DNA of 64,000 bases, from the IMG/VR virus record IMGVR_UViG_3300028588_000015, positions 32,001-96,000 of that record; one strand, given 5' to 3'. The notes beneath the pieces were generated by a model. That model saw nothing but the letters and a program-made list of their open reading frames with translations, ran no database searches and was not told where the DNA came from. This DNA comes from a virus. Taxonomy: Duplodnaviria > Caudoviricetes. Position 1 is the first letter of the stretch. Each line of letters opens with the position of its first letter. A program made the translations under genes and the position numbers. Positions 9,515 through 32,633 of this stretch are shown here, piece after piece.

Positions 9515-9542
9515 GAAAAGAGCATTGCTCTTTTTTTTTGTC

Positions 9543-10001
9543 CTAATGGACCCAGTATGGTGGAATGTACACCGTAATCTCGATCGGCAAGGGATCGAGA
9601 ATCTTGCGTACGACTGGTTCGACTTCTTCCCACCACAGTAACCCACCATTTCCACACCCTGGCGGTGGCATCGCCATCGAGGTAATGCCGTACTCTTCAT
9701 ACTTGGCCGCAATGTCCTTCAATGCGGTTCGCACCCACTCCACTTTGGAGGGAAACCGCCAGTGCTGCTTCGTGGGCATGCAAAGAATCTTGACACCCGA
9801 TACATCATCGTAAATGAAATTGCGATGTTTCATGAAGAAGTAGTCACGACATGCACGCTTGTACGCTTGAAACATATCTGGGTAGCGGGCTTTGAATTCT
9901 TTGGCCACACCCGCCCCCATGACACCCACGGTATTGACAGTACATACCAAGGTTTGCGCTTTACTGCTAAACAGATCACCACCTACGATGGATACCGGCA
10001 C
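9543..10001 (-). CDS. Stand-alone DarG-like macrodomain (ADP-ribose glycohydrolase)
   Basis: TVNTVGVMGAGVAKEFKARYP, PTKQHWR..S..EW and SMAMPPPGCGNGGLLW match the DarG-type macrodomain signature. Confidence 0.88.
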   Translation of the reverse strand: MPVSIVGGDLFSSKAQTLVCTVNTVGVMGAGVAKEFKARYPDMFQAYKRACRDYFFMKHRNFIYDDVSGVKILCMPTKQHWRFPSKVEWVRTALKDIAAKYEEYGITSMAMPPPGCGNGGLLWWEEVEPVVRKILDPLPIEITVYIPPYWVH

Positions 10002-10026: not shown

Positions 10027-10479
10027 TTACACTGGTGGCAGTGCTGCACTGTCACGCGCTTGTTTTTCTTTGCACTCTTGAAGAATGATCTCACACTGCT
10101 CACGGGTATGTGACATGAACGTTTTAAAGTTCTCTCCCGTGTACTTCAATACATCAAACGCCATGAAATCTTTCAAGCGTCGTTGGAAACCACCCCCGAC
10201 AGAACTGTTCTCTGCCGGGTGTAGTAACATAGGCGCAAGTGGGCTGACGCCAGGTTGTTCGTGGTCGAAAATCCTGAAGATTGTTTCGTAACGTTCCCGC
10301 ATGAGCAGTTGCGTGTCCGACGACAACAGTTTTGGTGTCTTTTGCAAAACACTGGCAATCTCTTCACGGATTGCCAGTGCAAAGTGCTTATGCTCACCAA
10401 AACTCGATTGCGCTATGTGTATCCTGCCAGGCCCTAGTCCCGCAGCCCCAGACGTGCTACCTTCTGGAGCAGAAGGATA
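10027..10479 (-). CDS. Downstream ORF probably reached by -1 frameshift (GT-like extension)
   Basis: The frame of the 10027-10347 ORF stays open for 44 more codons, up to the T7 run at 10479-10485, with no ATG/GTG/TTG; it is the -1 frame of the upstream gene. Confidence 0.6.
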   Translation of the reverse strand, partial: YPSAPEGSTSGAAGLGPGRIHIAQSSFGEHKHFALAIREEIASVLQKTPKLLSSDTQLLMRERYETIFRIFDHEQPGVSPLAPMLLHPAENSSVGGGFQRRLKDFMAFDVLKYTGENFKTFMSHTREQCEIILQECKEKQARDSAALPPV

Positions 10480-11939
10480 AAAAAAGTCGACATCGTGTCC
10501 AGTACCAGATAGTTCGGGAACTGTTGCATCTTGTTCGACGATTCGTCGTAGTCACCTCGGGTCACTGCCACCACCGAAATGGTGGAGTCTTCTGCGAACT
10601 TTTGGATATGGTCGAAGAAGGCTTCGTTGTGTTCGTCCGAACCGCTGTACACATCGAGATTGTTGTCGATGTCTTCGCGGTCGTCGATCACGTCCGAGCC
10701 AAGGTGGATGGCCTTGACCCAGTGGCCGAACTGGCGCACGTTGGTGGCTTTGCCGAGCTTTTCGATGTGTTCGATGCGCTTGGTTTCATTGGCAGCCAGG
10801 CCGAGCGCCTTGTCGACCATCGTCGAGATGCCGTTGACCCACTTGTTACCGCTCTCGAGGTAATCGGCGATCGATGGCACAGCGAGTTCGAAGGCGAGGT
10901 TCTCGTTCACCGTGACGCGGCGGGTGGCGCCGCGCAGGAACTGTTCACGGTAGAGACGAATGGTTTCGAGGTTCACCTTCTGGCCGCGTTGCTTGGCCAT
11001 GTGGTTGCGCTGGCGGTCCGTCAGGGCCAGGTTGTCGGTGATTTGTAGGCCGCCCAGTTTCAGCAGGCCGCTTTCTTCGATGTACGAACCATCTTCCGGT
11101 TTGATCTTGGTTCGGCTGTAGGGGAAACCCTGCGGCCAGATCGTGTAGGCCAGACCCCAGATCAGGATCGGCAGGTCCAGGCAGCTGATGACTTGGTGGT
11201 ACGAGCGTTCGTTTTCGATCAGGTTGCTGTCGTGGATATGGTCGATTACGAAGTCGGCGAGGATGCCGGCGAAGATGGCCGAGTTGTTACCGAAGACGAC
11301 ACCATGGGTGGCGCGGCCAAGATTTGCCTTCTCTTCGGTTAGGCGTCGTTCCAGCTCGACCAGTTCGGTTTCTTCCGGAGCCATGAGGGTGACCCAGATG
11401 CCGGTGTGGTACAGCGGAAAGCTGAAGGTCGTGCCTTGGCCGGTGGCTTGGCGCATGCGCATCATGGCGGCTTCGCCGGTCAGCTTCTTGCCATCGCCCG
11501 CAAGCCAGTTGCGCGTGCTCGCCGCCAGTTTACCGTTTTCGCTCGGCACTTCCTGCATCCAGAAGCTCCCCGGACGGTAGGTGACTTCGGAATACCAACT
11601 GGCCGCCGGCAGCATGAACAGCGATTCACGGAAGCTTTCCATGAACTTGCGACCGGACTCGGATTTGGCGTAATCCTGGTTCGGCATCTGGTTCAGCTTG
11701 TCGACAGTTTCGTTGCGCGTTTCGTTCGGGACTTGGAGCCGCACGCTGTCCGGGCGCGGTTCTTTGGTCGGTTCGATGAAGATGTCGCGGGTTTGTTCAC
11801 CGGTGGGCGTTACCGCCGGAGTTTCGGGCACGTCGGTTTTGGCGATGCTGTCGGCGCCCGTGATCGGATACGTGGTCGTCAAACCGTTATTCGTATCTTC
11901 GACTTTGAGCGAGCCAGCTCGATTTTCTTGTTCGGACAC
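10434..11939 (-). CDS. Conserved phiKZ-type protein (gp77-like by synteny), candidate tail/baseplate assembly chaperone
   Basis: GTG start at 11939 behind an AGGAG RBS gives 501 aa; ends STFFILL...; the N-terminal 44 aa in the ORF track are an overlap artefact. Confidence 0.7.
   Translation of the reverse strand: MSEQENRAGSLKVEDTNNGLTTTYPITGADSIAKTDVPETPAVTPTGEQTRDIFIEPTKEPRPDSVRLQVPNETRNETVDKLNQMPNQDYAKSESGRKFMESFRESLFMLPAASWYSEVTYRPGSFWMQEVPSENGKLAASTRNWLAGDGKKLTGEAAMMRMRQATGQGTTFSFPLYHTGIWVTLMAPEETELVELERRLTEEKANLGRATHGVVFGNNSAIFAGILADFVIDHIHDSNLIENERSYHQVISCLDLPILIWGLAYTIWPQGFPYSRTKIKPEDGSYIEESGLLKLGGLQITDNLALTDRQRNHMAKQRGQKVNLETIRLYREQFLRGATRRVTVNENLAFELAVPSIADYLESGNKWVNGISTMVDKALGLAANETKRIEHIEKLGKATNVRQFGHWVKAIHLGSDVIDDREDIDNNLDVYSGSDEHNEAFFDHIQKFAEDSTISVVAVTRGDYDESSNKMQQFPNYLVLDTMSTFFILLLQKVARLGLRD
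10460..10485 (-). promoter_or_regulatory. Putative -1 ribosomal frameshift signal (T TTT TTT plus 3-prime hairpin)
   Basis: Minus strand reads ACT TTT TTT AT CCTTCTG-CTC-CAGAAGG: an in-phase heptamer and a 7-bp hairpin. Confidence 0.6.
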
Positions 11940-31295: not shown

Positions 31296-32633
31296 ATGCG
31301 TAAACTCGGAATCATCTCCCTGGAAAACGAGGGCGAATCCCAACTGGAAGGCGGCGGCGAAGGCGTCGTCGAAGACAACGCGAACTCGGCGGAAACCGCC
31401 ATGCTGGAAGTGGCCGACAGCGAAGCCGAAGGTGCCGAAGGCGATGCCGCCGTCGACGAAGCCGTCGAAGCCGTGTCCTCGCTCGAAGCCTACTGCGTCG
31501 CCCTGGAAGCAGCCAACGCCACCGGCGGCCTGACCCGCGAAGGCGCCGCCGTCATGAACATCGGCCTGGAACACATCTACAGCCAACTGGGCTTCCGCAA
31601 GGAAGACACCAAGGTCGTGTCGATGGAAAACTTCGGCCAAGCATCGTCGCGTGCCAACGCCACCCAGATCGCCATGGAAAGCGTGAAGGACAAGCTAAAG
31701 GAAATCTGGGCGGCCATCATCGCGCACATCAAGAAAGCGATCGAATGGGTCAAGGGCCACTTCAACAAGATTTTCGGCACCGCCGAGCGTCTCCAGAAGC
31801 GCGCCAAGGCCCTGTCCCAAGCGGCCGGCTCGGCCAACGTCAGCGGCCAACCGAAAGAAAAGACCTTCGAAAACGAGCGTCTGGTCAAGGCCCTGCACAT
31901 CAACGGCGCCATCCCGGCGGACCTGCCGAAAGAGCTGACCAAGATCAAGACCGTTGCCGACAACGTGTTCACCCAGATCGCCGACTTCAACGGCAAGGGC
32001 GCCGAAGCTCTGCTGGAAGAAATGGGCAAGACCGATGGCAAGCTCGCCGACATCAAGACCGTACCGCTGCCGCAAGGCGCCGTCGCCAAGGTCAACAACC
32101 CGAAGGGCGCGGGTTTCGCTGAGCCGGTCGCTGGCCTGTCCCTGTTCCGCGGCCCGGTGATGCTCGGCAACAAGGCCGTCATCGTCGAAGCGCCGAGCCA
32201 AGCCCTGAGCGGCGAACAAGCGGTCACGCCGGCATCGAAAACCTCGATGGCCCTGGGCGCCTTCGACCCGAAAGCCAGCGAGCCGAGCGGCACCACCGTG
32301 CATGTGATCGATGGTGGCAAGATCGCCGCCGTGGCCGATGAAGTCGACGCCATGATGACCGACGTCATCAAGTACCGCGCCAAGCTGGGCAAGTTCGGCG
32401 ACCTGAAGTCGAAGATCGTCGCCGCCGCCGAGCGCGCCGGCAAGGATTCGAACACCGAAGAAAACAAGGACAAGGCCGCTTGGCACGGCGCGATGCAGAA
32501 GATCGCGACCAACGTCGTGAACAACCTGGACCGCGGCCCGGCCGCCATGTCGATCTACGTGCTGAACACCGCCAAGGCCGCGCTGGACCTGGCCGAGCAG
32601 TCGCTCAAGCAGTACACCGCCAACAAGAAGTAA
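31296..32633 (+). CDS. phiKZ-like internal head protein (gp93-97 family)
   Basis: Acidic propeptide with many SLE/ALE/SME/AME sites, then AMESVKDKLKEIWAAIIAHIKKAIEWV...F; extreme codon bias. Confidence 0.8.
   Translation: MRKLGIISLENEGESQLEGGGEGVVEDNANSAETAMLEVADSEAEGAEGDAAVDEAVEAVSSLEAYCVALEAANATGGLTREGAAVMNIGLEHIYSQLGFRKEDTKVVSMENFGQASSRANATQIAMESVKDKLKEIWAAIIAHIKKAIEWVKGHFNKIFGTAERLQKRAKALSQAAGSANVSGQPKEKTFENERLVKALHINGAIPADLPKELTKIKTVADNVFTQIADFNGKGAEALLEEMGKTDGKLADIKTVPLPQGAVAKVNNPKGAGFAEPVAGLSLFRGPVMLGNKAVIVEAPSQALSGEQAVTPASKTSMALGAFDPKASEPSGTTVHVIDGGKIAAVADEVDAMMTDVIKYRAKLGKFGDLKSKIVAAAERAGKDSNTEENKDKAAWHGAMQKIATNVVNNLDRGPAAMSIYVLNTAKAALDLAEQSLKQYTANKK

Follow-up and report, generated by a model that had tools for sequence, protein, structure and literature searches.

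A conserved T run near the 3' end of a phiKZ-like jumbo phage core gene as a candidate site of -1 recoding

Introduction

Some phages obtain two proteins from one gene through a -1 change of reading frame near its 3' end. The tail assembly chaperones G/GT of lambda and E/E' of P2 are made in this way by -1 frameshifts, that of P2 at a T-rich run; these proteins are about 140 amino acids (aa) long and are produced in a fixed ratio. In phage T7 gene 10A/10B, the -1 shift takes place at G_GUU_UUC near the end of the capsid gene. The tau and gamma products of dnaX arise by -1 ribosomal frameshifting in E. coli and by transcriptional slippage on an A run in Thermus. Here we describe a run of seven T near the 3' end of a 501-aa gene, called gene A below, and the open -1 frame that follows it, in a 64,000-nucleotide stretch of a tailed-phage record from a leaf-litter metagenome (IMG/VR record IMGVR_UViG_3300028588_000015, positions 32,001 to 96,000 of 225,547 bases). 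This stretch is called the window, and all positions are counted from its first letter. Run lengths are written T5 to T9, and the bacteriophage is always called phage T7.

The locus shares features with each of these systems. Like the lambda and P2 genes, gene A would yield a short and a C-terminally extended protein by a -1 shift near its 3' end, its downstream open reading frame (ORF) lacks a start of its own, and the P2 run is T-rich as well. With phage T7 10A/10B it has in common a U-rich site that precedes the stop of a long gene for structure or assembly by a few codons, a predicted minority isoform that is extended, and the lack of a strong, well-placed downstream structure; unlike 10A/10B, it belongs to another protein family, its extension is a conserved domain of about 130 residues that has been annotated separately, and its site is kept over a whole virus family. 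The comparison with dnaX is instructive in that either mechanism can lead to two isoforms at a homopolymer run, although the shifted dnaX product is the shorter one and the E. coli site is flanked by a defined Shine-Dalgarno element upstream and a hairpin downstream, neither of which we find at the present locus.

A preliminary description of the window, made from its letters alone, had proposed that a programmed -1 change at the T run joins the 501-aa gene with the ORF downstream. The comparison with orthologues presented below strongly supports this proposal, and recoding at the run, whether by the ribosome or by the RNA polymerase, is in our judgement very likely.

Results

Reading frames at the end of gene A

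Gene A lies on the minus strand at 11939-10434, from a GTG start at 11939, downstream of AGGAG, to a TAG stop at 10436-10434. Its codons 485-488 read ACT TTT TTT ATC (10487-10476), which places the T7 run at 10485-10479, in phase as T_TTT_TTT, and the stop follows 14 codons past the second TTT of the run. The -1 frame is open from 10551 to a TAA at 10029-10027 (174 codons from stop to stop). From the T7 run onwards it reads YPSAPEGSTSG... and continues for 150 codons, of which the first 44 contain no ATG, GTG or TTG; the first such codon is the TTG at 10347-10345, codon 45 after the run. The predicted products are therefore 501 aa and 487+150 = 637 aa long, the latter with the junction ...MSTFF/YPSAPEG. 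The junction peptide predicted for the window is ...QQFPNYLVLDTMSTFFYPSAPEGSTSGAAGLGPGR, and the tryptic junction peptide predicted for phiKZ is FPHLIPIDMLSTFFYFGGLEVK. The preliminary description had already given the in-phase heptamer 14 codons before the stop, the -1 frame open to 10027 with 44 startless codons, and products of 501 and about 637 aa, and direct reading bore out every one of these features.

The putative extension (10479-10027, minus strand; 150 codons and the TAA) consists of a linker that overlaps the tail of gene A, followed by a conserved helical domain. In the overlap (10478-10434), the same nucleotides (nt) would encode the end of the last helix of the gene A protein in the 0 frame (ILLLQKVARLGLRD, then the stop) and the linker in the -1 frame. 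A T7 run alone is not rare, the 64-kb window containing 8 matching runs against 13.7 expected; the position of the run together with the open -1 frame, both of which are kept in every orthologue examined, is nevertheless far beyond chance.

Identity and annotation of the two frames

The gene A protein matched phrog_4585 (E 5.8e-87) over positions 35-542 of the 551 of the profile, almost to its end, so that the 0-frame product is complete. The extension matched a separate family, phrog_12109 (about 147 positions), with E 3.9e-18 over residues 21-144. By tblastn, gene A was detected in 183 records, every one of a phiKZ-like jumbo phage, and record notes place it in the family of phiKZ gp77, 201phi2-1 gp136 and EL gp47, to which Goslar gp081 also belongs. 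In the supplement of the Chimalliviridae core-genome paper, this family is core gene cg18 (Goslar gp081, phiKZ gp077, RAY gp267) and is annotated as 'hypothetical protein'. The name gp77 is also used in other papers for different genes, namely the virion RNA polymerase of PhiPA3, the small terminase of PCH45 and the decoration protein of Goslar.

Database records annotate two separate genes at the locus. In phiKZ the -1 frame appears only as the truncated PHIKZ076.4, which covers its last 80 codons from an internal ATG. None of the database records inspected annotates recoding at cg18, and no paper linking phiKZ-like phages with a cg18 frameshift was found in the literature searched.

Conservation of the T run and of both frames

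The preliminary description had suggested asking whether the T run and its frame relation are kept in orthologous gene pairs. We compared 86 loci, 6 from GenBank and 80 from IMG/VR, collected with an alignment query; a single-protein query gave no loci. They hold 84 distinct A genes with a content of guanine plus cytosine (GC) from 0.33 to 0.64 and 134,886 nt in total. A T run stands 10-28 codons before the stop of gene A in all 86 loci (10-46 codons when five further relatives inspected separately are counted), and in every one the open -1 frame measures 151-190 codons; the +1 frame is short and variable (2-105 codons). At the homologous place, all 84 distinct orthologues have a run, of length T7 in 52, T8 in 21, T6 in 6, T5 in 4 and T9 in 1. 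The same layout is found in phiKZ, PCH45, phiEaH2, pEa_SNUABM_43, SA002 and a contig of TARA Oceans. In phiKZ, whose genome has about 37% GC, the site reads ACT TTT TTT ACT and no stop interrupts the -1 frame for about 165 codons, up to a terminator. PCH45 was at first taken to lack a run; when the locus was scanned in full, GGT TTT TTT ATC turned up further upstream, and its -1 frame opens 6 nt ahead of this site. Natural in-frame fusions were suspected in BFVD hits of 686-687 aa and in the 640-aa protein P0043, and only longer N-termini were found there. As a separate observation, among 29 coding sequences in a 45-kb part of phiKZ (L087, NC_004629, 60000-105000) the sole T7 besides that of gp77 lies in phase about 68 nt into the helicase gene gp75.

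The nucleotides of the run are kept where synonymous codons would serve the protein equally. At the site, Phe is encoded by 146 TTT and 16 TTC codons, as against 472 TTT and 812 TTC elsewhere in gene A. Where Thr precedes the run, its codon is ACT in 33 cases and ACG in 4, never ACC or ACA, and pEa_SNUABM_54 has V-F-L in place of T-F-F and still keeps T7. Only 4 other runs of at least six T occur in the 134,886 nt of the A genes. Judged by these codon counts, the T run is conserved at the nucleotide level beyond the needs of the protein.

Two further features locate the shift and concern the products. In 15/84 loci the -1 frame has a stop at 0-11 nt upstream of the run, and the stop of gene A comes as close as 24 nt downstream; this pins the shift to the T run. 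The 0-frame tail past the run is itself conserved, with L489 present in at least 90% of the orthologues, which, beside the conserved extension, indicates that both isoforms are under selection. On the evidence of the aligned sequences, then, the T-run site and both frames are under selection, and the shift must occur at the run.

These data also bear on the possibility that the layout is an artefact, one ORF having been split by an error in homopolymer length during metagenome assembly, or that the locus is a pseudogene. The window does come from a metagenome-assembled virus record, and one GenBank record, that of RTH11, seems to hold a one-base length error at precisely this run. The two-frame layout, however, recurs in 84/84 distinct orthologues, many of them from phages that were cultured and sequenced independently; conservation at the protein level is seen in the 0-frame tail as well as in the -1-frame extension; and an independent assembly of the source sample contains all sampled words of the stretch. 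We regard an artefact or decay as extremely improbable.

The RTH11 record is an observation in its own right. This Xanthomonas phage (L005, OQ790161.1, 2475-2706) has T7, against T8 within an identical codon context in its relative LucasX, and its annotated 627-aa ORF consequently continues in a junk frame over the start of the extension. The difference is probably a one-base homopolymer error, or else a length polymorphism at a slippery run.

Start codons and coding selection in the extension

Could the downstream ORF instead be an ordinary gene, starting at TTG 10347, at ATA 10416 or by re-initiation past the TAG of gene A, with the run merely encoding Phe-Phe? The database records do annotate two genes, and in the window an AGGA-N5-ATA (10425-10414, minus strand) stands at the position of the annotated GTG start of LucasX. 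To examine this we used an alignment of 68 -1-frame products (alignment A2). Just past the stop of gene A, these products share a motif with the consensus H-V/I-x-x-P-x-F-G, in which F is present in 65/68 and H in 50/68; the window has H-I-A-Q-S-S-F-G (10419-10396, minus strand), 14 nt past the stop and upstream of any canonical start. A start codon of some kind stands ahead of the motif in 21/68 loci, as two separate genes would allow, whereas in the other 47 there is no ATG, GTG or TTG between the run and the F of the motif. The pattern that the preliminary description had raised against its own proposal, a second ORF opening with its own ATG and ribosome-binding site in the orthologues, is thus not the one found.

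The individual candidates fare no better. The V/I column of the motif is used as a GTG start in some records, but its codons are GTC in 23 cases, GTG in 11, GTA in 9, GTT in 8 and ATH in 13, a mixture which shows that it is not a start codon. The ATA at 10416 was considered as a non-canonical start behind AGGA and rejected, since most orthologues have no start codon in this column and the preceding His is conserved. The TTG at 10347-10345, which aligns with the annotated start of FLC9 and has a poor ribosome-binding site (GAAGAG, 12 nt upstream), was rejected because coding selection and the conserved motif lie upstream of it: between the stop of gene A and the TTG, differences among the window's four closest relatives number 54, 38 and 110 at positions 1, 2 and 3 of the -1-frame codons, so that the stretch upstream of the TTG appears to be translated in the -1 frame. 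Across the loci, the first start codon of the -1 frame stands anywhere from codon 9 to codon 153, and in several relatives it comes 72-153 codons into a frame of roughly 160. Moreover, the -1 frame is open across the whole overlap with gene A in all loci and closed just upstream of the run in many, neither of which independent initiation requires, and the codon choice at the run is far from gene A's own usage. Taken together, these points make two ordinary genes an improbable explanation.

The extension also differs from gene A in composition. Its GC content at third codon positions (GC3) is lower than that of gene A in 75/86 loci (0.51 against 0.73 in the window), and its total GC content is lower in 82/86 (about 0.48 against about 0.60 in the window). 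The lower GC3 fits a stretch that is read by fewer ribosomes, and we read the drop in GC as weaker codon selection on a rarely translated stretch; it could also reflect a different evolutionary origin of the domain.

Ribosomal frameshifting and transcriptional slippage

A ribosomal shift would proceed as follows. Most ribosomes would stay in the 0 frame of gene A, terminate at the TAG at 10434 and release the 501-aa protein with its last helix (482-499) complete. A fraction of them, with tRNA-Phe on both UUU codons of U_UUU_UUU, would slip back by one base; their next codons would be UAU CCU ..., and translation in the -1 frame would go on for 150 codons until the TAA at 10027. In the resulting 637-aa protein, the linker and a conserved helical domain of roughly 130 residues would replace the end of the last helix. 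The shift would be a minority event, which the weaker codon bias of the extension fits.

The phase of the runs favours such a mechanism: the canonical in-phase heptamer T_TTT_TTN is present in 74/84 orthologues. From this pattern we infer that the slip is ribosomal rather than transcriptional, and we put the probability of a ribosomal -1 shift at the T7 run at a little under 60%.

The same alignment contains a series of observations that weigh against a ribosomal shift. The canonical heptamer is missing in 10/84 orthologues, which have G_TTT_TTY (7) or T_TTT_ATY (3). In 19 cases TTC or TTG stands in the place of the second Phe codon, and 17 of these have NTT as the codon ahead, which restores T7; this NTT_TTT_TTC/G state arose at least five times on the tree beside sisters with ACT_TTT_TTT. 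In one locus (L030, GTG_TTT_TTT_TCC), T7 is kept by lengthening on the 3' side and is out of phase. A run length that appears to be kept irrespective of phase is a better fit to polymerase slippage than to a pure heptamer model.

Stimulatory elements speak in the same direction. In the window we found neither a stimulator 5-9 nt downstream of the run nor a Shine-Dalgarno-like element upstream of it. The preliminary description had pointed to a hairpin, CCTTCTG-CTC-CAGAAGG, with a spacing shorter than usual. This 7-bp inverted repeat (10476-10460, minus strand) is indeed present, only 2 nt past the run, but its part as a stimulator did not hold up: the hairpin is absent from the minimum-energy fold, and its 66-nt context has z = -0.06 against shuffled sequences. 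No consensus structure emerged across the orthologues, of which L007 and L014 alone retain the hairpin, with 6 bp. The codons for I-L-L-L-Q-K probably give rise to it incidentally, and it is not a demonstrated stimulator. More generally, no conserved structure was detected in the 50 nt past the run; the mean z is -0.8, the folding energy equals that of control windows in gene A, and alifold returned nothing.

One clade of five IMG/VR loci (L027, L031, L035, L047 and L050), with the site GTT/CTT_TTT_TTC, has a stem of 8-11 bp, ACTCAGCG ... CGCTGAGT, which starts 9-11 nt past the run (span 9-45 nt) and whose 3' arm includes the TGA stop of gene A. The sequence of the stem is conserved and not covarying; a clade-specific frameshift stimulator is a plausible interpretation.

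Slippage of the RNA polymerase on T7, which the preliminary description had named as an alternative, stands as the chief rival. Here the phage multisubunit or the host RNA polymerase would add one U on the A7 template, and minority U8 mRNAs would encode the same 637-aa fusion. The run length is apparently selected whatever its phase, ACT_TTT_TTT and NTT_TTT_TTC/G both amounting to T7; the latter state, in addition to its repeated origin in the alignment, appears again in phiEaH2 and pEa_SNUABM_43; L030 keeps its T7 outside the canonical phase; the RTH11 run is one T off that of LucasX; and the downstream RNA structure is not conserved. A and T runs are, furthermore, generally avoided in phiKZ coding sequences, as if they were hazardous to the polymerase: in 29 of these sequences, runs of at least six A number 6 against 40 expected from synonymous-codon shuffles, and runs of at least six T number 4 against 12.5.

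On the other side, it is the phase of the ribosomal shift that 74/84 runs occupy, and where a run has an extra T, it almost always lies on the 5' side. Shorter runs, T6 and T5, occur in 10/84 orthologues, and when independent lineages are counted, the compensation of length is only suggestive (about 5/7 against about 6/18). For bacterial-type RNA polymerases to slip productively, a run of seven is short, the cases known to us having at least nine or a helper hairpin. We consider transcriptional slippage the less likely of the two mechanisms, yet one to be taken seriously.

RNA data bear on this choice to a limited degree. Contigs from phiKZ RNA sequencing (RNA-seq) in three studies, placed on the PA7 locus (99% identical to phiKZ), all have T7, which indicates that the bulk of the phiKZ/PA7 mRNA is unedited and that there is no majority editing. 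Such contigs drop rare variants, so a minority U8 species lies outside their reach, and the run of raw reads contained no phage reads. For the window's own phage, one metatranscriptome alone contained any of its sequence, 7% of the words.

At another place in PA7/phiKZ (L089:3517), between the stop of the extension and the terminator hairpin, one RNA-seq contig (run X4) has an extra A in a long A run. This A run is covered by the X4 contig only, the contigs of the other two studies not reaching it, and the extra A could be a strain difference or slippage on the A run.

Predicted structure and function

The AlphaFold2 model of the gene A protein has a mean predicted local distance difference test score (pLDDT) of 86 and a predicted template modelling (TM) score of 0.86. 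The Phe-Phe and the 0-frame tail both fall within its last helix (residues 482-499), so that the long form would lose the end of this helix. The extension is modelled as a helical domain (pLDDT 80), and neither by shape nor by features did it give an informative match as to function in PDB sequences, Foldseek PDB or the ESM Atlas.

The preliminary description had taken the pair as the equivalent of the lambda G/GT or P2 E/E' chaperones, and this part of the proposal was not upheld: family, size, fold and gene context are all against it. At 501 aa, gene A is far from the size of those proteins and has no homology to them, and it is not located between tail tube and tape-measure genes. Searches of Pfam, PHROGs and NCBIfam returned no tail-chaperone family for gene A, and NCBIfam no match at all. 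Its model matched no solved structure; against the HK97 chaperone 2ob9 the comparison gave E 2.1 and probability 0.11.

A comparison with the folds of T4 gp26/gp51, which had been suggested along with that of the chaperones, was more rewarding. Beyond orthologues, the search of BFVD with the gene A model returned many models of T4-like baseplate hub assembly proteins or hub subunits, with E 5e-6 to 1e-3, probability 1.0 and, in a comparison of predicted with predicted models, TM scores by target of 0.41-0.55; a wider listing contains more than 15 baseplate hub (assembly) models with E 5e-6 to 1e-2 and probability 0.94-1.0. Pfam PF12322 (T4_baseplate), the family of gp26/gp51, was matched by 2/67 orthologues (E 5.3e-5); neither the window protein nor the window's own genome had a match to it. 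At the sequence level the relationship is weak. When the gene A family was aligned with T4 gp26 and gp51 by hhalign, the probabilities were 15% and 4%, and only a CPxCG motif was aligned. This zinc-ribbon motif is located near the C-terminus in most orthologues, before the last strand and helix. In the clade of the window (the window and L007-L009), a deletion at residues about 460-466 of gene A (window 10540-10560) has removed the cysteines.

Gene A thus resembles T4 gp26/gp51 in predicted fold and, in most orthologues, in the CPxCG motif; it differs in being twice as long, and the window protein has neither the PF12322 match nor the motif. T4 gene 26 likewise has two annotated products, 26 and 26', although 26' comes from an internal start and not from a frameshift. 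Some depositors have named orthologues 'T4 gp26 like' or 'baseplate hub', and the virion proteins named in the notes of the phiKZ and 201phi2-1 records do not include gp77 and gp136, which is consistent with a non-virion role in hub assembly. These predicted models make an assembly role plausible, and the two isoforms may both act in virion assembly, at the baseplate hub.

Neighbouring genes

Gene A has as neighbours a gp78-like gene, a macrodomain gene, a helicase and virion RNA polymerase subunits. In the window, the next gene of the same operon (10001-9543, minus strand) has a GTG start at 10001 behind AAGGAG, 26 nt past the stop of the extension, and its protein begins with a macrodomain-like motif (VCTVNTVGVMGAGVAK). 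Just past the 3' end of this gene there is a T9 run on the plus strand (9531-9539), which is A9 on the gene strand.

Discussion

The T7 run of cg18 adds a new case to a known type of mechanism, and the gene concerned belongs to the core of an intensively studied phage family. Ribosomal frameshifting is the reading we prefer, on the phase of the runs. A bolder view combines the compensation of run length with the predicted fold. It holds that the length of the U run (at least 7), and not the heptamer, is what is selected; that the divergent multisubunit RNA polymerase of nucleus-forming phages slips on it; and that the resulting gp26/gp51-like short and long pair is the functional counterpart of G/GT. 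We consider this view doubtful as a whole. If polymerase slippage were nevertheless correct, it would be the first programmed transcriptional recoding for the RNA polymerases of nucleus-forming phages, and a functional counterpart of G/GT would fill a role that T4-like and phiKZ-like myoviruses otherwise appear to be without.

The gene in question, cg18 (phiKZ gp77), is common to all chimallin-encoding jumbo phages and is still listed as hypothetical. If recoding at its T run is true, every genome record of the family mis-annotates the locus, the second ORF having been called, in truncated form, from an arbitrary internal start, as with the 80-aa PHIKZ076.4. The family would gain one unlisted protein, a long isoform of about 640-690 aa, and knock-out, transposon-insertion sequencing (Tn-seq) and proteomic data for the two "genes" would have to be read as data on one unit. 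The cg18 site would also be a natural test of whether the unusual phage RNA polymerases slip on short U runs, and mutants that make only the short or only the long form would provide a simple genetic handle on a probable baseplate-hub assembly factor.

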